NCBI GenBank assembly: GCA_051251855.1
Contig: JBPOGI010000002.1
Span: 480,001-544,000 of the forward strand
Length of the DNA stretch: 64,000 bases
Direction of reading: 5' to 3'
Source of the DNA: Roseibacillus sp.
GTDB lineage: Bacteria > Verrucomicrobiota > Verrucomicrobiia > Verrucomicrobiales > Akkermansiaceae
A program made the position numbers and the translations under genes. Shown here one piece after another: positions 15,852 to 52,530 of this stretch (position 1 is its first letter; every line of letters begins with the position of its first letter). The notes under the pieces were generated by a model that ran no database searches, had not been told where the DNA came from, and saw nothing but the letters and a program-made list of their open reading frames with translations.

Positions 15852-18191
15852 CTACTGGGTGAGCTCTTTGATGGTCTTGAGCTTTTCCTTGGGCTCTTCT
15901 TCGGCTTCGATAACTTTGATGGTGTCTTCGAGCAATTTACGCCATCTGGTGTCGCCCCCACCTTTGAGGGTGGCGGCTGCTTCTTTGACCGGTTGAAGAT
16001 GCTCTTTGGCGTGTCCTTTGTATTTGAGGACCAGTCTAGCAGCGAAGGGCAGGCGGCTGTTTTTGCCCCAGCCCATATCAGATAAGATGGCGGTGGAGGC
16101 GATGACTCCTTCTTCGAGGTTGAGAGCGGTGAGGGTTTCGGCACAGGAGACTCTGAGCTTGTTGGCGAACATGATGTTACCCTCGGGTAGCTGGAAGGCT
16201 TGCTCATAGATTCCGGGGAGGAGAGGGTAGAGTTCTTTCTCGGGTAGGTATTGGAGCCCCATTGCGATGCGGGATGAAACAAGGGCGTCTTCGTCCGCGA
16301 GAAGGATGTTAACGGCGGCGATGGTTGCTTTGCGGTCTTTAGGGGCATTGAGTAGTTTTCCTACTGCTTGAGAAGAAACGCCCAGGGGGAAGAAGGTGTT
16401 ACCGATGGCTTGGGTGAAGATGGGGGCTTCGGCTTTGTTTTTAGCGAGGTGCTTGAAGACTTCTTCCAAGGCGCGGGGCTTGTTTTGTCCGGCGAGTTTG
16501 CTGATGGCCACGACTTGGACGGTGATGTCTTTGTCGGCCAGCAGAGGGACGACTTGCTCAAACTTTTTACTTGAGCGAATGGCGGCAATGCGGTCGAGGG
16601 GATTGGTTGAGCTGAGGGTGGCATCTGTTTTCAGTTCGACCTTCCGACGTCGCAATTCGCGGGCGCTCGCGTTGCGCACGATGGGCGACCAAGAGGAGAG
16701 GCATTGGCGCAGATATTCCACGGAGGCATAGCGGTAGTTGATTTTTCCAGCTTCGATGGATTCCGAAATTTCGTTGGCGGTGAGTTGGGGCACGTTGCCA
16801 ACGTCGCGTCCGGTGATGCGGAGTTTTTTGAGAGGGAGGGCGAAGTGGAGGAGGTAGGCTCCGGGAGTTTTCCATGAATGATGAGGACTGTTGCCGCGCT
16901 GGCGGGGATAGCCTTGGTAGGGGAAGCGGTATTCGGAGTCGCGAGCGAGGTCGTAGTACCAGCCGAATTCTTGCAGCCAAGAACCGGTAGCGGCGGGTCC
17001 GGCTAGAGAGACGGCAGGAAGGGACCAGAGCATGTTGAAGAAGTTGCCTGTATGGCCTTGTTCGCGATCGGCGCCGTAGGCTGCGATGGCGGTGCGGGTG
17101 TAGTAGCGGCAAGCAGCTTTGTCGTTAAGCAGACTGTAGAAGATAGCTGCGGCAGAGTTTTTGCCGTTGTCGTCGTGGCCATATTGCAGGTTGGGAGGGC
17201 CGTCTCCATAGGGGATGGCACCCATGCCGATATGTCGGCGAAAGAAGTTGGCGGCGAGCTCGATGCTTTCGTCGAGTCCGGTGAAGGAGATTCCGCATTC
17301 GCGGGCAAGAACGAGGGAGGTGGCGACGGGGACACCCACGGCATTGACGGCGCCGTATCCGTTCAAGCGGTCGGTGTCGGGGTTGACGAAAGTGTGACCC
17401 CAAGTGCCGATGGGGCCTTGTCCTTCGACGAGGCGGCCGGTGAGACGGCGGATTTCGGGGAGGACGTCAGGGTCTTTGGTGAGGAGGTAGTATTCGCAAA
17501 GGAAGATGTTGGCGAAGGAGTAGTGCCAGCAGGCGAGAGAGATGTTGGGGCCCAGCGGATTGGCGAAGGTTTTGTGGGCGTGTTCCGCGATGGCTTCTTC
17601 GTAGGAGCGGTCACCGGTGGCGAGAAGAGCGAGGGCGTTTATGTGGCTGTCGATGGAGGGGCGGCCGAGGCCTCGTGCCACAAGAGCGTCGCATCCCTCT
17701 TGGAGAATTTTTTCGGATTTGGGACAGTCGAACGGAGCGGTGGGTGAGAAGGCGGGAAGGTGCTCTAGTTTAATAGCGATTGTTTCGGTCTCTCCTCCTC
17801 GAAATCGGAGTAGCTTCAGCTCGCCAGAAGGAGAAGCTTCCGCAGGGGAAATGGCTTTGGCAAAGGCGATGCGGGCATCACTTTCGAAAGGAGTTTCGCC
17901 CAAACCGACAATGACATCTCCTTTTTGCAGAAGGCCTTTGGAGGGACCGTCAGGGGAGACTTTGGTGATGAGAATCTGGCGACTCTGTCGAGTCGTGCCC
18001 GGGGCTCCGTCGGCGCTGACTTGGACCCAGCCTCGTGCTCCAGTGGGGCCGAGAGTCCAGTCGTGGGAGGTGTTTTGAGGGAGAGAGGCGCCCTGGGTAA
18101 AGTCGAGAAGCTTGGAGGATACTTCAGGGTCCTTGGCGTTAGCAAGGAAGGTGAGGCTGAGAGAGAAGGCGAGAAGGAGTGAGTGGTTCAT
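15852..18191 (-). CDS. DUF6288 domain protein with PDZ-like N-terminus and HEAT-like C-terminus
   Basis: Signal peptide; DWTLGPTGARGW, RQILITKV, GDVIVG, GAIPYGD, HDDNGK, GHTGNFFN. Confidence 0.75.
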   Translation of the reverse strand: MNHSLLLAFSLSLTFLANAKDPEVSSKLLDFTQGASLPQNTSHDWTLGPTGARGWVQVSADGAPGTTRQSRQILITKVSPDGPSKGLLQKGDVIVGLGETPFESDARIAFAKAISPAEASPSGELKLLRFRGGETETIAIKLEHLPAFSPTAPFDCPKSEKILQEGCDALVARGLGRPSIDSHINALALLATGDRSYEEAIAEHAHKTFANPLGPNISLACWHYSFANIFLCEYYLLTKDPDVLPEIRRLTGRLVEGQGPIGTWGHTFVNPDTDRLNGYGAVNAVGVPVATSLVLARECGISFTGLDESIELAANFFRRHIGMGAIPYGDGPPNLQYGHDDNGKNSAAAIFYSLLNDKAACRYYTRTAIAAYGADREQGHTGNFFNMLWSLPAVSLAGPAATGSWLQEFGWYYDLARDSEYRFPYQGYPRQRGNSPHHSWKTPGAYLLHFALPLKKLRITGRDVGNVPQLTANEISESIEAGKINYRYASVEYLRQCLSSWSPIVRNASARELRRRKVELKTDATLSSTNPLDRIAAIRSSKKFEQVVPLLADKDITVQVVAISKLAGQNKPRALEEVFKHLAKNKAEAPIFTQAIGNTFFPLGVSSQAVGKLLNAPKDRKATIAAVNILLADEDALVSSRIAMGLQYLPEKELYPLLPGIYEQAFQLPEGNIMFANKLRVSCAETLTALNLEEGVIASTAILSDMGWGKNSRLPFAARLVLKYKGHAKEHLQPVKEAAATLKGGGDTRWRKLLEDTIKVIEAEEEPKEKLKTIKELTQ

Positions 18192-18207: not shown

Positions 18208-18243
18208 AAAGAGCCCAAGAAGCAGATACTTCTTGGGCTCTTT
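18208..18243 (-). terminator. Strong hairpin/terminator between the beta-strand repeat gene and the DUF6288 gene
   Basis: Perfect 15-bp inverted repeat AAAGAGCCCAAGAAG-N6-CTTCTTGGGCTCTTT, followed on the minus strand by a pyrimidine tract. Confidence 0.75.
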
Positions 18244-18271: not shown

Positions 18272-20623
18272 CTAAGGCATGCTAACGGAGAGTCTCACGA
18301 AGACTTTCTCAAGGGTCGCGGGGACGCTTGAGGTCGTTACGGTGACGGTTTCGTAGCCAGTAGCAGCGGCAACTGGTGTGCCAGGAGTAATTGTGACGGT
18401 GTTGGCTCCATTGGCAACTCCACTGGCGGTCCAATCGCCATCGAGGGTGGTGGACCATTCGTAGGTTGCGGTGATGTCCGAGTCGTCGACAGGACGGTCG
18501 TGGGTAAAGACGATTTCGCCAGCTCCTGCGGCGCTCTCGACGCACAATGGCGAAGTCGAACTGTTGGCTACGGTAGGGTCGCTATTGAAGAAGTAATACT
18601 CTAAGCCATTAGCAATGCCGTCGCTGTCGTCGTCATCGTTAAATCCGCCCGTGAGACGAGCAAAACCTGCGGACCAAGCTGCATAGGGGCCACTGGCAGC
18701 GCCTGCGGTGTAATCGAGAACGACGTCGGTTCCCACCACATTCAAAGCCCAAGTTCCGGTTCCGGAAGTGAAGCCGGAAGAGTCGAGGGTGATTTGGGAC
18801 GGAACGAGGGTAGGGGTGCCACCAATAGTGGCGACGATGAAGCTGGCATTGCTTTCTGTGAAGTTGGCAAGAGCGGCTTCTTCGATGACGATGTTGAGGC
18901 TGCTGGTAGTGTCGAGAGTGACGTCTCCGGTGACTGCCAGTTGCGTGAAGCCTGTTCCTGCAGCACCGGTCCAGTCGGAGACTTCCCAGTTGAAGGTGGT
19001 GTCGCTGCCTGCACCTGCGGTGAAGGAGGCGGCGGTGGTGGCTTCGTCAATGGTGAGGGAGGCGTCGTTGGTGACGTCTCCCACAATGCAGGCTCCTAGC
19101 GAATTACCGATGCGAAGAGTTCCCGCGTTGATGTCTACCGAGCCAGTGATTGCGACGGTTCCAAGACCGATGGCTCCGTCTCCGTTTTTGACAACATCCA
19201 GGTTACCTCGATCATCAGCTACGGTGACTCCAAAGGCGGAACCGAAGTTGAACTCCTCGTCAACTGCGGGGTCATCGGCAATATCAAGAATCACGGTGCC
19301 GGTCTCGGTCGGGATACCAGGGGAAGTCGCGGTATCATAGTTGATGACTTGGCGGATATTGTTCGCTGCTGTGCTGAGACCGGTGAGAGTTTGGGTGAAG
19401 CCGTTGAGCACGAAGAGAGAGCTGCCGCCGCCTCCAATCGTTAAGATGGTGTCGTCAGGAAGGGCTTCATCGATTCCCAAGCCGATGCGTCCACGAAAAA
19501 TTTGGGTATTGCCAGTGTAGTCGTGAGTATCGCTTGTTAAAATAAGGCCATTGGCATCAGCTCCTTGAGCGCGGCCGAGTTGTAAACCGCCGGTTCCGGT
19601 GATCGTGCCTCCGTAGCTACATGGCGCTCCCGACATCACAATAATGCCTACTTTGTCTTCATCAACACCACCATCCAAGGTGATGCCTCGATTGGATTCG
19701 AGGGAGGGAACATTGACGAGCTTCAATTCACCTCCTTCGCGCAGTATGATGTTGTCGGGATCGACGGTGGCAGGGACTGCCCCGAGTGCCGCATCTGCTG
19801 ATAAAATTTGAAGTTCGCTTCGGTTGGTGGAGCTATCGACGATGACGCCTCCCGAGAAGGTGTTGGCGGCATTGTTGAGACGAACAAAAAATCCGTTGTG
19901 GGAGATGACATGGAGGGTTCCGTCGCCGCTGACGATTCCGTTCAAGTTTGAAAAACGATTAAACCGGTTGCCGAATCGAACGATCCCAGCTCCCAGTTCC
20001 CAGTTATTGAAGTATCCTTGGCTTGAATTACGCTCATGGACATAGGTGCTATTACCAGCGAGCTTGACAGTCCCAAATTGACCGATGGTGGCCGCGTTGC
20101 CTCTCACTGTTGTGGCTTCGGTGACATCGAGAGTGGCTCCTGCTGCGATCCAAGGTGCGTCATTGGGCTTCTCACCCGTGTCGAAGACGCCTGCGCCCAC
20201 GATGGTCAAGGTGTCTCCGGTGGCAATGGAAAGAGGAGTGTCGTTGGTTTGATTGTTCACGAACTCGATCTCGGTCCCGCCCGTGTTCCAAGTGGCGCCA
20301 CCGGCCTTGATTGTGATGAGTCCAAGATTGTCGGTGACTGATTGGAGGGAGAGGAGCCCTGCGGTGGAAAGGTCGCCCACGGTGACTCCGCCATCAGCGA
20401 CATCGACAAAGGCTCCAAATGCGTCGGGGAAAATGGCTTCTTGGGCCCCGGTGTTGTCCCAAGCGACCTCGGGAGCGCTGCCGTCGTCGTCCCAGTTGAG
20501 GGAGGTGAGATCCCAGAGGATATCGGCATCTGGGAGCCAAGTGAGTTGGGCGGAGGAAGAAACGGTCACAGCTGCCAAAATGGCACCTGTCTTCAGGAGA
20601 AGAAAAGGACGGGTAATTTTCAT
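18272..20623 (-). CDS. Secreted autotransporter-associated beta-strand repeat protein with C-terminal FVR domain
   Basis: Start MKITRPFLLL; repeats LNNAANTFSGGVIV, LILTSDTHDYTGNTQI, VVKNGDG; C-terminal DDDDSDGIANGLEY...YEWSTTL..W...KVFVRLSV. No beta-barrel is recognisable. Confidence 0.75.
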   Translation of the reverse strand: MKITRPFLLLKTGAILAAVTVSSSAQLTWLPDADILWDLTSLNWDDDGSAPEVAWDNTGAQEAIFPDAFGAFVDVADGGVTVGDLSTAGLLSLQSVTDNLGLITIKAGGATWNTGGTEIEFVNNQTNDTPLSIATGDTLTIVGAGVFDTGEKPNDAPWIAAGATLDVTEATTVRGNAATIGQFGTVKLAGNSTYVHERNSSQGYFNNWELGAGIVRFGNRFNRFSNLNGIVSGDGTLHVISHNGFFVRLNNAANTFSGGVIVDSSTNRSELQILSADAALGAVPATVDPDNIILREGGELKLVNVPSLESNRGITLDGGVDEDKVGIIVMSGAPCSYGGTITGTGGLQLGRAQGADANGLILTSDTHDYTGNTQIFRGRIGLGIDEALPDDTILTIGGGGSSLFVLNGFTQTLTGLSTAANNIRQVINYDTATSPGIPTETGTVILDIADDPAVDEEFNFGSAFGVTVADDRGNLDVVKNGDGAIGLGTVAITGSVDINAGTLRIGNSLGACIVGDVTNDASLTIDEATTAASFTAGAGSDTTFNWEVSDWTGAAGTGFTQLAVTGDVTLDTTSSLNIVIEEAALANFTESNASFIVATIGGTPTLVPSQITLDSSGFTSGTGTWALNVVGTDVVLDYTAGAASGPYAAWSAGFARLTGGFNDDDDSDGIANGLEYYFFNSDPTVANSSTSPLCVESAAGAGEIVFTHDRPVDDSDITATYEWSTTLDGDWTASGVANGANTVTITPGTPVAAATGYETVTVTTSSVPATLEKVFVRLSVSMP

Positions 20624-20785
20624 GGTTTGATTGGTTTGAGAGCTGATTTTGGCTGGAAATCGTTGCGTCCGGACAAACATTCTCAAATGTTCAACCCTAT
20701 TAAAGCACTGTTTCTTTACAGCTGAAAAAGATTCTTTTCCGCCCTTGTTATTTCTCGTCTTCGCCAATGAGGCGATACTCCTACT

Positions 20786-22852
20786 TTAGGGAGTTCTAAC
20801 GACGTTTTCGATTTCTATAATTTTGAGATGTTTGGGGAGTTGGGTGAGCTGCTCTATCGAGAACTGGTCTTTGAATACAATGAGCTCTTCGAGGTTCTCC
20901 AATTCGGCAAGAGGGGTTAAGGTTGCTTTGGGACCTTCTCTAATATCAAGCCGTCTGACGGTGATGCCGTGGAGTTGCTCGTAGTTCCGTAGATTAGGGG
21001 CGCGGAGGGTGAGCTCGTTCAAATCAAGCAATCGAAGAATGCAATGGCTGGGGTAGGCTGAGTTGAGGTGGGGCACTCTCGGGCGATAGAGGGTGAGAAT
21101 CATTCCGCCTGCGATGCTGAGCGAGCGGGTGTCGGCATCAAATACCCATTTGCCCTGAGTCCATCGGGTATTCGCGATGCGGAGAAGACGCTCAATGATG
21201 CGAGCTGTTTGTCGGGGAGACTCTCGCTTGAGACTGTCATAGATGACGATCTTTTCCATAAAGGGGGAGCGATCCTGCTTCGAGGGAGAGTCATCTGGTA
21301 AAACGGCTAACTCGTCGAGCAGGTTGATGAGGTCATCGGGAGATAAAAGCCCATTGGGTTGGAGGAGCGGGGCGTATTTGGAAGCCAAGGCACGGAGGTC
21401 TCCCTGTTCTCCTTCTCGAACCTTGTAGAAGGCTTCCACGTCATGGAATTTTTGCTGTAGGAATAAGGTGTAGCCTTTGACGGTCCAAAGGCGATTGGTC
21501 GGGCGGGGGTCCTCGAGGAGGGCGCGGTCCATCGTGGCCATGGCATTCTCTAAAGCAGTGAGGCTGATAGCTTCGTCCATGATGAGGTTGTCGAGGATCA
21601 GGAGGGTGCCATCCAAGACGCTTTCGCTCTGGCGCTCGATGAGGGCGGAGGAGAACTGCCGTTCGTTTCGAAACTTGGTGAGAGAATCAACGGCTTCGTG
21701 GCGAGCGATATCAGCTTGCGCTTTTTCTTGGCGAGCAATAAGGAGCGCTTCCTTGGACTTTTCCAGGGCAACGGCCTTTTCTTGATAGCTCACCCCCAGT
21801 TTTTGGGTGAACCAAATGGCGAAACCAAACAGGATGAGGAGTGAACCTGCTGAGATGAGCGAAATGACTCGATTGCGTTGATAGAATAAGCGCGCTTCTC
21901 GGATGAGACCTGCTTCCTCGACTTTAGGGCTGCGTCCCATGAGGTGTAATAAGACGTCGTTGAGCAGTTCTTGGGTGCTTTCGTAGCGGTCTTCGGGCAG
22001 GGGTGCACAGGCTTTGCTAATAATGGCGGCAAGGGCAGGGGACTCGGGAGGATTTTTCTCGCGTTTGCTAGGAAAAGAGAGGGTGGTGAGCTCGTAGAGG
22101 AGGCACCCGAGGGAGAAGATATCGTTTTGAACTTTCTTGGGTGCTCGGTGGTGTTCTTGTTCGGGGGCCATGTAGCCGGGAGTCCCTTTGATAGGGGGAT
22201 CAACTTGGCCTCCATAGAGGTCGGGGTCGAGGAGCGCCTCGGAGAGATGTTCTTCGCTGTCCCCTTGAGCGATTTCTCCCATGCCCCAGTCGCAGACTTG
22301 CACTTCCCCGAAGAGACCGATTTGAATGTTTTCGGGTTTGAGGTCGAGGTGCAAGACGTGTCTTGAATGGGCGTAGGAGAGGGCTTCGCAGATTCTTGTG
22401 AAAATGGTCAGCCTTGTGGGGAGAGGGTAATCGCTTCGGCTCTTTTCTTTTTTAAGGGAAGAGAGAATCTTACGGAGGGATTGTCCGCGCTTGAACTCCA
22501 TGGTGAAGTAAGGGCGGTCGACCTCATCGATTCCCATATCAAAGAGCTTGATGATATTGGGGTGGTCAAGTCGTGCCGTAATGTGCGCTTCGCGAAGAAA
22601 GGCATCGTAGCGTTCGTGTCGGAACCCTTCTTTGGGACGGGCAAGGGCGACGGTGCGCTCCATCTGCTGGTCTTGGACGCGGAAGACTTCCTTCATGCCT
22701 CCAATGCCGATAGAATCCCAGCCCGTGTAGCGGACTTTGCTGTCTTTGAGAGATTGGTAGAGGGGGCTGAGGTCAAGAGCGGGCTCCTTGGCAGGGACCT
22801 CTTGGTCGGCGAGGTTATAAAGGTCGCGAAATTGTGAGGATTGTGTGGGCAT
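20786..22852 (-). CDS. Membrane Ser/Thr protein kinase (Hanks type, WNK-like lysine placement) with LRR-like C-terminus
   Basis: GIGGMKEV, VALAR, FLREA, HPNI, HLDLKPENI, DWG, GTPGYMAPEQ, DIFSLG; one TM segment; start overlaps the sigma stop (TGATG). Confidence 0.9.
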   Translation of the reverse strand: MPTQSSQFRDLYNLADQEVPAKEPALDLSPLYQSLKDSKVRYTGWDSIGIGGMKEVFRVQDQQMERTVALARPKEGFRHERYDAFLREAHITARLDHPNIIKLFDMGIDEVDRPYFTMEFKRGQSLRKILSSLKKEKSRSDYPLPTRLTIFTRICEALSYAHSRHVLHLDLKPENIQIGLFGEVQVCDWGMGEIAQGDSEEHLSEALLDPDLYGGQVDPPIKGTPGYMAPEQEHHRAPKKVQNDIFSLGCLLYELTTLSFPSKREKNPPESPALAAIISKACAPLPEDRYESTQELLNDVLLHLMGRSPKVEEAGLIREARLFYQRNRVISLISAGSLLILFGFAIWFTQKLGVSYQEKAVALEKSKEALLIARQEKAQADIARHEAVDSLTKFRNERQFSSALIERQSESVLDGTLLILDNLIMDEAISLTALENAMATMDRALLEDPRPTNRLWTVKGYTLFLQQKFHDVEAFYKVREGEQGDLRALASKYAPLLQPNGLLSPDDLINLLDELAVLPDDSPSKQDRSPFMEKIVIYDSLKRESPRQTARIIERLLRIANTRWTQGKWVFDADTRSLSIAGGMILTLYRPRVPHLNSAYPSHCILRLLDLNELTLRAPNLRNYEQLHGITVRRLDIREGPKATLTPLAELENLEELIVFKDQFSIEQLTQLPKHLKIIEIENVVRTP

Positions 22853-23499
22853 CAGTCGGTGGAGTTCTCCCCAAGTTCCTCGAGGTCTTTCTTTAACTGT
22901 TGGATTTCGCGTAAGAGGACGGTTTTGACTCGGTGCTTGAGAATGTAGACCGTGTTGGTCTTGATGCCGAGGGTTTCGGCGATGTGCTCTACGGTCTGCC
23001 CGTCCAAGGACATTGTGAAAACCTCGATAGCGTGCCCAGAGAAGACGAGGCGGGCTCTGTCCATCGCAAGTTCAACCACGTATTGCTGCCACTCTTCTTC
23101 GACCCTCTTTTCCAGCCCGGAGTCATCGGAAAGCATGTTCGCTTGCTGGGATTGCTCGTCATCAAAACTGGGCCCCGTTGGTTGGCGGTTACGAGAGCGG
23201 ATAATGTTGAGAGCGGTATTGCGAATGAGACGCGCGAACCAAGTTCGGAAGAGGGCGCGCTCGGGGTCACGCTCGTAGGTGTGGAGCCCTCGCCAAAGTT
23301 TGAGGAAGACTTGTTGCTTGGCGTCCTCCAAGTCAGCACCGCGAAAGCTCATGGAGAGAAGGACCTTTGATACGAAGGGCTCATAGTAGCTGAGTAGCTC
23401 CTCCCAAGCGGGGTGGTTCTCGTCTTCGCGTGCACGCTGGAGGAGGCTGACCCGAGTCAGCAGGCCTTCGTTGGCCGATTGTTGGGAAGCTTGAGACAT
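22852..23499 (-). CDS. ECF sigma factor of the kinase-associated PVC type
   Basis: TRVSLLQRAR...AWEELL..Y, DLEDAKQQVFLKLW, FRTWFARLIRN, EEEW, HTH IAETLGIKTNTVY. Confidence 0.9.
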   Translation of the reverse strand: MSQASQQSANEGLLTRVSLLQRAREDENHPAWEELLSYYEPFVSKVLLSMSFRGADLEDAKQQVFLKLWRGLHTYERDPERALFRTWFARLIRNTALNIIRSRNRQPTGPSFDDEQSQQANMLSDDSGLEKRVEEEWQQYVVELAMDRARLVFSGHAIEVFTMSLDGQTVEHIAETLGIKTNTVYILKHRVKTVLLREIQQLKKDLEELGENSTD

Positions 23500-44877: not shown

Positions 44878-49902
<5,025 letters not shown>

Positions 49903-49906
<4 letters not shown>

Positions 49907-50454
49907 GCTGTTTCTTCGGGGCTGAGAATTTTCTTTTCCACGCACTTTTGGAGTTGGGCGCGAAGGCGCTTGAGGCGCATGTAAAAAGCGGCGGCGGTGG
50001 AGCCGGATTCTTCGGCCATTTCCTTGACCTTGATTCCGGACGTGTAGGCCATGGTGAGGAACTTGCGTTGTTGTTCGGTCATGGTGCGGAGGCAGACTTC
50101 GAGGGCGCGATGTTCGGCGCTGCGTTCATCGATTTCGTTCATGCCTTCGGCGGCCATAAGGTCGAGGATGTCTTCGCGAAAGACGAGGCGATCGCGGGCG
50201 ATTTTTCGGCGGTAAGCGAGGGCTTCGAAGCGGGCAATGACGCAGGCCCATTTCATGAAGTGGGTCTCGGGGTCGTATTGGTCGAATTTTCGCCAAACAA
50301 CGAGAGCGGTTTGTTGGAGAACGTCGTCGGCGTCGGTTTGGGTGGGAAGGAGGGAGCGAATGAAGCGCCGGAGGTCGGGCTCGTGGGTGGTGAAGACCCT
50401 GACGAACTCCTCGTAGTGATCGGGGGATTCGGCTGCTGACGAGGTTTTTGACAT
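49903..50454 (-). CDS. ECF sigma factor, Rhodopirellula/Verrucomicrobium family (TIGR02989-like)
   Basis: F...FT.HEPDLRRFIRSLLP, ADDVLQQT...WRKF, F.KWA..IARFE, AL..CL, L.RLR..L.KCVE. Confidence 0.92.
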
Positions 50455-50466
50455 CTTCAAGATACT

Positions 50467-50493
50467 ACTGCTGCGGACGGGAAAAACTCACGG
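50467..50493 (-). promoter_or_regulatory. Putative ECF promoter motif, copy A (autoregulatory)
   Basis: Minus strand CCGTGAG-TTTTTCC-N8-GCAGT, 12 nt before the sigma ATG. Confidence 0.6.
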
Positions 50494-50563
50494 ACAGAGT
50501 TCGGCTGGGGCCATTTTTTGGTTGTTTGGCTAAACCTTTGCCTCATTTTGGGCATTGATAGAT

Positions 50564-51097
50564 ATGGAGGAGGCCGACGAAGATGAACAGGAGTTTGTAG
50601 CGCTCTTGACCGCCCATCAGGGGCCGCTGTTGGCGTATATCCGTTCGTTGATGCCGGGATTCTCGGGGGCGACCGATATTCTGCAGCAGGCGAATATCAT
50701 TTTGTGGCGTAAGCGGGAGACCTTTGAACTGGGAACGAATTTCAAGGCCTGGTCGTTCACGGTGGCGCGGAATATGGTTTTTACGCAGCGAAGAAAGCTG
50801 AAGAAGGATTCATGGCTGGTTTTTGATGAGGATTTGGCGGAACGGTTTGCGGAAGAGTTTGATGAAGACGATGAGAGTTTGGATCGGGCGCACCGAGCCT
50901 TGTCACAGTGCGTGACGAAGTTGCGGCCTCATGACTTGGAGCTTCTGCAAAAACGCTATGCGGAGAATGTGGGGCTGGACAACTACGCGAAAGATCTGAA
51001 TCGCAGTCCTGGCACGCTGAAAGCTCGTCTCTTTAAAATTCGGGCCAATCTTCGTCGTTGTATCGAGCGACAACTTGAGACCCCTGTGCAACAGTGA
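50564..51097 (+). CDS. ECF sigma factor, Rhodopirellula/Verrucomicrobium family (TIGR02989-like)
   Basis: FVALLTAHQ..LLAYIRSLMP, DILQQANIILWRK, GTNFKAW, AL.QC..KL, LFKIR..LRRCIE. Confidence 0.92.
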   Translation: MEEADEDEQEFVALLTAHQGPLLAYIRSLMPGFSGATDILQQANIILWRKRETFELGTNFKAWSFTVARNMVFTQRRKLKKDSWLVFDEDLAERFAEEFDEDDESLDRAHRALSQCVTKLRPHDLELLQKRYAENVGLDNYAKDLNRSPGTLKARLFKIRANLRRCIERQLETPVQQ

Positions 51098-52530
51098 AGC
51101 AAGAATTGAAAAACGAAGAGTTGTTGCAGTCTCTCTTCGATGGGAGCTGCAGTGAAGCCGAGGTGAAGGAAGCGCAAGAGTTGCTTCGTTCGGATAAGAA
51201 GTGGCGGAAAATTTATTTGGAGTATAGCCGTTTGCATCATTCGCTTTGTGAGCGTTATGAAGGAGGGGAAGAGAAGGTGGTTGTGGGCGAATTCTCCGAG
51301 TCATCGGGATGGGACTGGAAGCGGTTCGCGATGATTGCAGCGGCGCTGGTGTTGTTGGGAGTGTTGGTAGTGTTTTTGATGAGGCCAGATGAGGGGGAGT
51401 CCACTTTGGTGGAATATGGCCCCGAATCGCGTGGCGTGATTACTCATGGCAATGGTTCGACGGAGAAGGAGACCCTGTTTGCGGGGTCGACTTTGAAGTT
51501 GGATCGTGGTGCGGTTTCGTTGATTTTTCCCACGGGGGTTTCAGCGTTGATTGAGGGGCCTGCGTTGTTGGAGATGCGGGGGGAGAACGCGCTTCATATG
51601 AAGAAAGGGCGAGGCTTCTTTAAGGTGCCGGAGGGGGCTGAAGGTTTTACTTGTACGACCGAGACCTTGGAGGTCGTCGATATGGGGACGGAGTTTGGAA
51701 TTGTAGCGGGCCGGGAAGATGAGGTTCATGTCATTAGCGGGAAGGTTCGTCTTCGTCCCAAGGATGGCTCGAGTGATTTTCAGACGTTCGATATTGGGCA
51801 AAGTCTGGCTTGGAGGGATTCAGCACTGGCGCTTTCGGTGCCGCCTCGTGATTTTGCTTCTGACTTTGCGGGAAGGGTGACCATTTTTGCAGATGATTTT
51901 GATGAGCCGGATGGGACGGAGTTAGATGGGAAGCGGCCTGATTTGGGTGATGGTCGTTGGAAGGTAACCGTGGGGAACGCAACGATTGAGAATCAGATTT
52001 TTGATACTGCGGGCGCTTATCGAAAGGCGGCTTATGTTTCTATCCCGCCAGTGTTGAACGAGTTGAGCCACGTGTTGCTTTTGACAATCGAGGCGGAGAC
52101 TTCGGAGTCGGCAATGCATACCCCTGGATGGGCGGGGGTGAGTCTTTATACCGGAGATGAGGAGCGTATTTTTGTGGGGGATCCGAATGGTCAGGGGATT
52201 AGTTGGGGGCTTCATCCCGCGGGATGGCAGGCGCAGAATGCGTGTCCCGACCTGTCGGGGGCGACCATTGTGACCTTGCGTTATGATTATCGAACGGGGT
52301 TGACGGAGCTTTTTGAAGGGGAATCGACGACAGGAGAAGCGCTGGCGTCGGAGTGGATTGCGCCTTATTTGGTTTTTGACCGCTTGCGCATTGCGAATGG
52401 AAGTCAGTTGGATGCGGCGCTCGATGCGGGGCTGGAGTCGGAGGCTCTTGATAGGACGCAGAAGGTGGATGTGCGCAGTGATATTGCGATCCGCAGTTTG
52501 CGGCTGGATGTTCTTAATTCGGAATCGTAG
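51094..52530 (+). CDS. FecR-domain anti-sigma factor
   Basis: LFDG N-terminus, TM, FPTGV..LIEGPA, VPEGAEGF, VVDMGTEFG, VHVISGKV; GTGA overlap with the sigma stop. Confidence 0.88.
   Translation: MKQELKNEELLQSLFDGSCSEAEVKEAQELLRSDKKWRKIYLEYSRLHHSLCERYEGGEEKVVVGEFSESSGWDWKRFAMIAAALVLLGVLVVFLMRPDEGESTLVEYGPESRGVITHGNGSTEKETLFAGSTLKLDRGAVSLIFPTGVSALIEGPALLEMRGENALHMKKGRGFFKVPEGAEGFTCTTETLEVVDMGTEFGIVAGREDEVHVISGKVRLRPKDGSSDFQTFDIGQSLAWRDSALALSVPPRDFASDFAGRVTIFADDFDEPDGTELDGKRPDLGDGRWKVTVGNATIENQIFDTAGAYRKAAYVSIPPVLNELSHVLLLTIEAETSESAMHTPGWAGVSLYTGDEERIFVGDPNGQGISWGLHPAGWQAQNACPDLSGATIVTLRYDYRTGLTELFEGESTTGEALASEWIAPYLVFDRLRIANGSQLDAALDAGLESEALDRTQKVDVRSDIAIRSLRLDVLNSES

Follow-up and report, generated by a model that had tools for sequence, protein, structure and literature searches.

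An active-site lysine moved out of strand beta3 is known from the eukaryotic WNK ('with no lysine') kinases and from POMK (SgK196). In WNK kinases, the lysine takes the place of the third glycine of the glycine-rich loop (Lys233 in WNK1), strand beta3 lacks its lysine, the alphaC Glu and the catalytic residues are kept, and the swapped beta2 lysine is described as catalytic (PMC1821047). In POMK, the same relocation (Lys91 at the start of beta2, with a Ser in beta3) is reported as proven catalytic, with K93G abolishing activity and K93G/S108K restoring it (PMC5142810). Here and below, statements on cited papers hold for the parts of those papers that we covered. We analysed a 64,000-nt stretch of DNA from Roseibacillus sp. 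(Verrucomicrobiota; contig JBPOGI010000002.1, positions 480,001 to 544,000), hereafter the window, which encodes a predicted Hanks-type Ser/Thr receptor kinase with this lysine swap, directly behind an extracytoplasmic function (ECF) sigma factor. Our literature searches found no other bacterial Hanks-type case.

Among microbial kinase-like proteins, the CAK-chloro family also has a positive charge that sits at position 55 in place of position 72. However, CAK-chloro, a member of the choline/aminoglycoside kinases and not of the Hanks-type protein kinases, carries Arg55 and Met72 and has lost E91 (Kannan et al. 2007, PMC1821047). The pseudokinase families ActPs1-3, GLW, CP1, DYD and DLHK of the bacterial Ser/Thr kinase (bSTK) atlas have likewise lost the VAIK lysine, but none of them, in the part of the atlas covered, has a lysine in the glycine loop while HxD, DxG and the alphaC Glu stay intact. 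The strings 'planc' and 'verruc' occur 0 times in the main texts of the atlas and of the review. No description of the swapped family or of a bacterial Hanks-type case was found in a literature search that mostly excluded subscription papers, and the atlas supplement might contain the family. The kinome study of the Planctomycetes-Verrucomicrobia-Chlamydiae (PVC) bacteria counts only K-D-D kinases as functional (PMC11032199).

The combination of an ECF sigma factor and an adjacent membrane Hanks kinase with no anti-sigma gene is known from EcfP/PknT and EcfK/PknS (ECF43). In ECF43, the acidic sigma-2.2 motif is replaced by a phosphorylated Thr and the PknS loop is canonical (GxGGMG), whereas the sigma factor of the window has DxED. 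In PVC bacteria, the groups ECF59, ECF217, ECF61 and ECF62 also have a membrane kinase at position +1 (PMC7826278). That paper gives no characterised member and no conserved promoter for ECF217, and the parts of its main text and supplement covered here do not mention a lysine swap for the planctomycete kinase-linked ECF groups.

Architecture of the Roseibacillus kinase

The pair of genes and the elements of the kinase are as follows.

22852..23499, minus strand: ECF sigma factor gene, 215 aa (Pfam Sigma70_r2, 2.6e-13; TIGR02937 above cut-off)
20786..22852, minus strand: Hanks-type Ser/Thr receptor kinase gene, 688 aa, whose start overlaps the sigma stop
22691..22708, minus strand: Gly loop G49-I-G-G-M-K54, in which K54 (codon 22693-22691) replaces the third glycine
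22640..22651, minus strand: beta3 V68-A-L-A71, with Ala at the canonical VAIK lysine position
22589..22591, minus strand: alphaC Glu88
22328..22351, minus strand: catalytic loop H168-L-D-L-K-P-E-N175, non-RD
22283..22291, minus strand: D188-W-G190, whose Trp corresponds to Leu369 in the chloride pocket of WNK1
21812..21868, minus strand: single predicted transmembrane helix, residues ~329-347 (hydropathy 2.24)
20789..21679, minus strand: predicted extracytoplasmic domain, residues 392-688, with tetratricopeptide repeat (TPR)-like helices, then a short leucine-rich repeat (LRR) part

An earlier note, made from the letters of this DNA, had placed a Lys at the third glycine and an Ala at the beta3 lysine site of an otherwise intact kinase. 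Our analyses agree. The Pkinase domain (PF00069, 117 bits against a cut-off of 31.7) keeps the APE motif alongside E88, HLDLKPEN and DWG. Alignment to PknB sets K54 opposite the residue at the third-Gly position (GFGGMS) and A71 opposite the VAVK lysine. The beta3 stretch reads on as V68-A-L-A71-R-P-K74, and alignment to PpkA (TIAIKE against TVALAR) pairs A71 with the lysine and R72 with Glu, a non-basic residue. In the AlphaFold2 model (mean predicted local distance difference test, pLDDT, 84), beta2 begins at residue 54 and an unbroken strand spans residues 66-73. Structurally, the model matches PknB best (Z 28.2, root-mean-square deviation 1.9, 241 residues aligned). PDB chain 8gxq_HI (CDK7), with the sequence VAIAK, lines up exactly with VALAR. 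This chain is apparently a kinase-dead construct in which alanine replaces the lysine, so that A71 matches the classic inactivating change.

The predicted layout is an N-terminal kinase, one transmembrane helix and an outer domain. The single transmembrane segment proposed earlier agrees with one hydrophobic peak, at 329-347, and exactly one hydrophobic segment follows the kinase domain in 216 of 227 long homologues as well. The outer domain, modelled with a pLDDT of 91.9 and a predicted template modelling score of 0.90, had been called LRR-like, a description that fits its last half; the first part is modelled as TPR-like helices. Its structural matches are middling (Z 7-8.6; best 8.6 to TPR-like and 8.2 to LRR chains), and Foldseek gave no match at E <= 0.001.

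Set beside WNK kinases, the Roseibacillus kinase has Ala instead of Cys in beta3, HLD instead of HRD (R348 in WNK1) and DWG instead of the chloride-binding D368-L369-G370. Furthermore, it is a membrane receptor with a TPR/LRR outer domain, and the sequences and structures listed nearest to it are those of PknB-type bacterial kinases. Its active site resembles those of WNK and POMK, but it lacks the HRD arginine and the chloride leucine of WNK kinases, and we do not class it with them. In POMK, a glycan kinase, the alphaC Glu is gone and the HRD and DFG motifs are changed, whereas these elements are kept in the present family.

Conservation and origin of the lysine swap

We scored the swap in sets of homologues, representatives and loci that overlap in part. 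K54 is present and the beta3 lysine absent in all 120 top homologues, query included, with Ala (115), Thr (4) or Asp (1) at position 71. A second search, started from a 46%-identical paralogue, listed 120 sequences; after removal of one fragment without the site, K and A were found at the two sites, respectively, in 119/119. None of 239 close homologues has Lys at position 71. The 150 best representatives at 50% identity contain 189 kinase domains, which comprise 107 with the loop lysine only, 78 with the beta3 lysine only, 3 with neither and 1 unscored; none has both. All 107 swapped representatives retain E88, H168, D170, K172, N175, D188, W189, G190 and E231. The picture is the same for kinases taken from genomic loci (73 loop-only, 26 beta3-only, none with both or neither; 99/101 scored at both sites) and for 81 domains from metagenome loci (15 loop-only, 63 beta3-only, 2 neither, 0 both). 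E88 and HLD are each kept in 67/67 swapped loci. Since the swap is family-wide, we ruled out a sequencing or alignment artefact as its source.

Among named homologues, that of Roseibacillus persicicus is the closest (79% identity over the kinase domain), and the genome that harbours the window codes for 3 swapped kinases among 18 kinase-like open reading frames (ORFs). The carriers belong to Verrucomicrobiota, Lentisphaerota, Kiritimatiellota and Planctomycetota, and many of those named are marine bacteria. Their spread is patchy: swapped kinases were found in 50/401 genomes of the same family, 3/301 genomes drawn from the class and 6/101 of a second family, tallies that count finds and not absences, as few candidates were scored per genome.

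The earlier note had proposed covariation of the GxGxxK loop with loss of the beta3 lysine as a test. The covariation is perfect, yet it reflects one ancestral event. In a tree of 112 kinase domains with columns 54 and 71 masked (quick search, midpoint-rooted, no WNK sequence included), all 72 swapped rows lie on one side of a branch with a Shimodaira-Hasegawa-like approximate likelihood ratio (SH-aLRT) of 97, which amounts to one change; because the swap is confined to one clade, it counts once. Thus, going by the sequences, the swap arose a single time among bacterial kinases, with 0 reversals in the sample. The swapped clade has as its nearest neighbours canonical bacterial kinases that likewise carry HLD or DWG. 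This nesting, together with the PknB-type best hits, points to a likely origin of the swap separate from that of WNK, in line with the convergence on WNK geometry suggested before. WNK kinases are not among the 60 best sequence hits or the structure rows displayed, although they could still lie lower.

Several variants were seen along the way. A subgroup with a G-G-E-K loop, mainly from Kiritimatiellota (L028, L030, L031, L037, L038, L039, L043 and L050), has its sigma gene downstream on the opposite strand, tail to tail with the kinase gene. Many canonical DWG-type relatives (P0245-P0253 and similar) have two kinase domains per chain, both with the beta3 lysine. A hinge lysine, K121 (window 22490-22492), is conserved in 231/240 close homologues and 91/107 representatives; it is found in most sigma-linked members and not in the canonical kinases scored.

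Paired sigma factor, candidate promoter and neighbouring genes

The sigma stop and the kinase start share the letters TGATG, in agreement with the coupling noted earlier, and the kinase is encoded at +1 of the sigma factor with no adjoining anti-sigma gene. Against profiles, the sigma factor passes only the TIGR02937 superfamily cut-off. Of 67 swapped loci, 33 have a related sigma gene directly upstream of the kinase, 10 have one on the opposite strand and 4 have one elsewhere on the same strand; these counts support the link of the kinase to a sigma factor. The starts overlap or are at most 15 nt apart in 24 of the 33 pairs. At the same score, 0/26 canonical kinases have a related sigma. Related sigmas also precede canonical kinases in the genome of the window, so the sigma-kinase pairing itself is ordinary, as it is in ECF59, ECF217 and ECF62. 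Co-folding of kinase and sigma with ATP and Mg gave a score of 0.32 against 0.01 for the best control, which is weak support; the runs agree in at least 75% of contacts and the partner pLDDT is at least 76. The mark set for such predictions is reached by 116/157 solved complexes and 2/215 mismatches, and at scores of 0.60 or under only 18 solved complexes and both mismatches reach it.

The sigma factor keeps the acidic sigma-2.2 motif, D56-L-E58-D59-x-x-Q62. Among 53 aligned sigmas, Asp or Glu is found at positions 56 (48/53), 58 (48/53) and 59 (52/53), giving a family motif D-x-E/D-D-x-x-Q. EcfP, by contrast, is without the acidic motif until it is phosphorylated (PMC8999054), and EcfK can be activated through sites outside sigma-2.2 (PMC13147305). 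With DxED retained, the EcfP mechanism is inapplicable, and a phosphosite, if there is one, has to be elsewhere. Ser or Thr is conserved at T15 and S/T18 (each 51/51 where the residues are present), S/T86 (46/53) and S/T183 (53/53), and the first two are candidate phosphosites judging from this conservation.

Other arrangements were found. The second swapped pair of the genome (contig C11, ~63757-64380; locus L002:8758-9380, minus strand) has an intact kinase ORF and a sigma gene with two in-frame stops in its first 60 codons, which is a pseudogene or an assembly error. Five Lentisphaerota loci (L051, L057, L059, L060 and L072) code for swapped kinases of ~370-430 aa with no sigma nearby; these follow two genes that, by their N-terminal motifs, look like clpP and clpX. 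Two divergently encoded ECF sigmas of a different type lie elsewhere in the window (48218-52527), at 49906-50460 (minus strand) and 50555-51094 (plus strand), each followed by a gene presumably coding for an anti-sigma factor.

Downstream of the kinase gene, we identified the following features.

20693..20720, minus strand: candidate ECF promoter TGTAAAG-N18-GTT, ~70 nt before the start of the surface-protein gene
18272..20623, minus strand: gene for a predicted secreted or surface protein, 783 aa, the likely target
18208..18243, minus strand: 16-bp hairpin with U-tract, resembling an intrinsic terminator, between the surface-protein and DUF6288 genes
15852..18191, minus strand: DUF6288 protein gene (PF19805, 7.2e-117; weak PDZ match), beyond the terminator-like hairpin

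The 783-aa protein has no hit in a Pfam search and is PATR-repeat-like, with an Atlas feature score of 0.91 to PF12951 clusters. The motif ahead of its gene was first picked by eye, as TGTWRAG-N17/18-GTT, from the window and the flanks of a few other loci. The pattern was then widened by one letter (T at position 5, from two loci) to TGTWDAG-N17/18-GTT and fixed before further tests. Its only match in the window is the site at 20693..20720, which helped define it. Ten loci were left out of the tests, being the locus itself, pattern-setting loci, duplicates of loci already used or loci with no flank. Among the 27 held-out loci, 5, of which two are near-identical, have the pattern on the sense strand no more than 300 nt past the kinase, and 0 have it on the antisense strand; on the upstream side it points away from the sigma gene in 2 and towards it in 0. 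The background is 8/3593 genome windows (about 0.2%), and the nominal P near 1e-6 overstates the enrichment, as kin loci are not independent. The strict pattern was found downstream of canonical kinases in 0/16 loci.

When the genome of the window was scored with a matrix derived from 17 sites in other genomes, 11 of its 25 top sites were intergenic, against an intergenic share of 12%. The top seven are all intergenic, the site in the window is fifth in rank, and several sites come before genes for large proteins that are predicted to be secreted. High-scoring copies on four contigs (C9:69687, minus strand; C11:52422, plus; C7:17363, plus; C1:1136768, plus; C7:317902, minus) are located 35-228 nt ahead of genes for mostly secreted-looking proteins of 1178-1712 aa; these genes may be part of the regulon. 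A sigma-70 consensus scan was uninformative, with 2 sites where 3.0 were expected. Nothing but A/T runs emerged from blind counts of k-mers and gapped words in the flanks (36 downstream, 39 upstream), and a metagenome scan returned no close subclade members.

From the position of the motif, we infer that the adjacent sigma factor recognizes it, and the sigma-kinase pair probably switches on the neighbouring secreted-protein genes. Downstream control had been proposed before for both the surface-protein and the DUF6288 genes. The promoter-like motif favours the former, while co-regulation of the latter is doubtful because the terminator-like hairpin separates the two. In a set of 43 neighbours of swapped loci picked by hand, sulfatases, glycoside hydrolases, esterases and lectin-like domains are frequent. 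As this is a selected set from genomes that are rich in such genes anyway, a glycan signal for the kinase is no more than suggested.

Activity, mechanism and alternative explanations

The kinase is likely active, as its other catalytic residues are almost invariant and the WNK and POMK precedents exist, and the view of the earlier note that it is not a pseudokinase finds support in the retained residues. Catalysis probably goes through K54. In the mechanism that we favour, a ligand, probably glycan-related, would bind the outer TPR/LRR domain and activate the kinase. K54 is predicted to take the place of the beta3 lysine and hold the ATP phosphates. The sigma factor would dock on the kinase and be phosphorylated outside sigma-2.2, for example at T15 or S18, and the phosphorylated form would transcribe the adjacent secreted-protein genes from TGTWDAG-N17/18-GTT. 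We give this mechanism as a whole, a K54-active receptor kinase that phosphorylates the sigma factor encoded upstream and thereby acts on neighbouring secreted-protein genes, a probability of about 0.62. Taken separately, it is reasonably probable that the sigma factor is both partner and substrate of the kinase.

The protein might instead be an ATP-binding pseudokinase that signals by conformational change, with K54 merely steadying the nucleotide. Ala at the beta3 lysine is indeed the usual inactivating change, and surveys based on the K-D-D triad would not count the kinase as functional (PMC11032199). However, the catalytic Asp, the HxDxK lysine, the Asn, the DWG Asp and the alphaC Glu are kept in 107/107 representatives, whereas the described bacterial families that have lost the VAIK lysine mostly lose these residues too (bioRxiv 10.1101/2025.01.12.632604), which makes a pseudokinase quite improbable. 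That R72 or K74 could be catalytic through a one-residue shift of beta3, K54 being incidental, is hardly credible: position 72 is Lys or Arg in 221/239 close homologues, but in only 26/67 loci and 55/107 representatives, with Thr, Glu, Ile, Val, Gln and Met common in the wider sets, while K54 is invariant and the modelled strand is unbroken. R72 and K74 were rejected as substitute lysines since both positions vary, which supports the preference for K54 in the earlier note. That note also speculated on WNK-like chloride sensitivity, which is not borne out. A chloride or ion sensor that uses the pocket vacated by the beta3 lysine would fit the free space proposed to permit chloride binding in WNK1 (PMC7606576; PMC4718504) and the marine habitat of many named carriers. 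Nevertheless, chloride binds beside Leu369 in WNK1, and L369F removes sensing (PMC7606576; PMC13397483). The equivalent residue is Trp (W189) in 67/67 loci and 107/107 representatives, and the kinase has an outer domain of its own. As even Phe abolishes sensing at this site, WNK-type chloride sensing is unlikely by sequence comparison, and we regard such a sensor as very improbable.

The kinase could also be K54-active but serve mainly as an anti-sigma factor, holding a ready sigma at the membrane, possibly through the conserved N-terminal helices, and releasing it upon signal-triggered autophosphorylation with no need for sigma phosphorylation. Because the sigma factor keeps its acidic RNA-polymerase-binding motif, it is probably in need of some negative regulator, yet there is no separate anti-sigma gene beside it. 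The overlap of the starts points to synthesis at a 1:1 ratio, conservation extends to the N-terminal helices (Y12 in 209/240, P30 in 238/240), and the weak co-folding signal fits a complex. Even so, this arrangement is unlikely: the kinase-linked ECF sigmas tested so far are phosphorylated directly, in EcfK outside sigma-2.2 (PMC13147305), and T15 and S/T18 are invariant where present.

Several observations weigh against the phosphorylation mechanism that we prefer. The covariation of the two sites is a single event and affords no repeated independent evidence, and the tree behind it is quick, midpoint-rooted and without WNK. A decayed second kinase copy, split into two ORFs (L035:8939-10008), retains K54 but is without K172 and D188. 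Unlike the phospho-activated EcfP, the sigma factor has kept its acidic sigma-2.2 motif, and T15 and S18 could be structural, as the motif recurs in related sigmas beside canonical kinases. Of the 67 swapped loci, 11 whose flanks are complete have no sigma gene nearby, and in a further 9 the flanks are short; the swap is thus not tied to sigma control. Lastly, the promoter pattern was chosen by eye and widened after two loci. In a wide sample its strict form lies downstream of the kinase in 4/61 swapped loci, three of them training loci; the pattern is therefore not family-wide.

A bolder formulation, which we put forward tentatively and at somewhat below even odds, is that WNK geometry evolved independently in a family of active bacterial receptor kinases that comprises at least 107 sequence clusters (50% identity). 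Together with ECF sigmas that retain DxED and a TGTWDAG-N17-GTT promoter, these kinases would make up an undescribed transmembrane signalling system of glycan-degrading PVC bacteria. Control of the sigma would be unlike that of EcfP, relying on N-terminal phosphorylation or on release from a kinase that acts as anti-sigma factor, and triad-based surveys would have wrongly discarded these kinases as dead.

If the kinase is active, it represents a further independent origin of a beta2-lysine active site, after WNK and POMK. Its near-canonical background would make it well suited to testing why the lysine moves, and whether chloride sensing follows from the move by itself; the Trp at the Leu369 site predicts that it does not. 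Kinome surveys based on the K-D-D triad would miss the swapped family. For Verrucomicrobia, Lentisphaerae, Kiritimatiellae and Planctomycetes, the sigma-kinase pair would provide a testable regulator, together with a candidate promoter, for genes of secreted proteins and glycan degradation.

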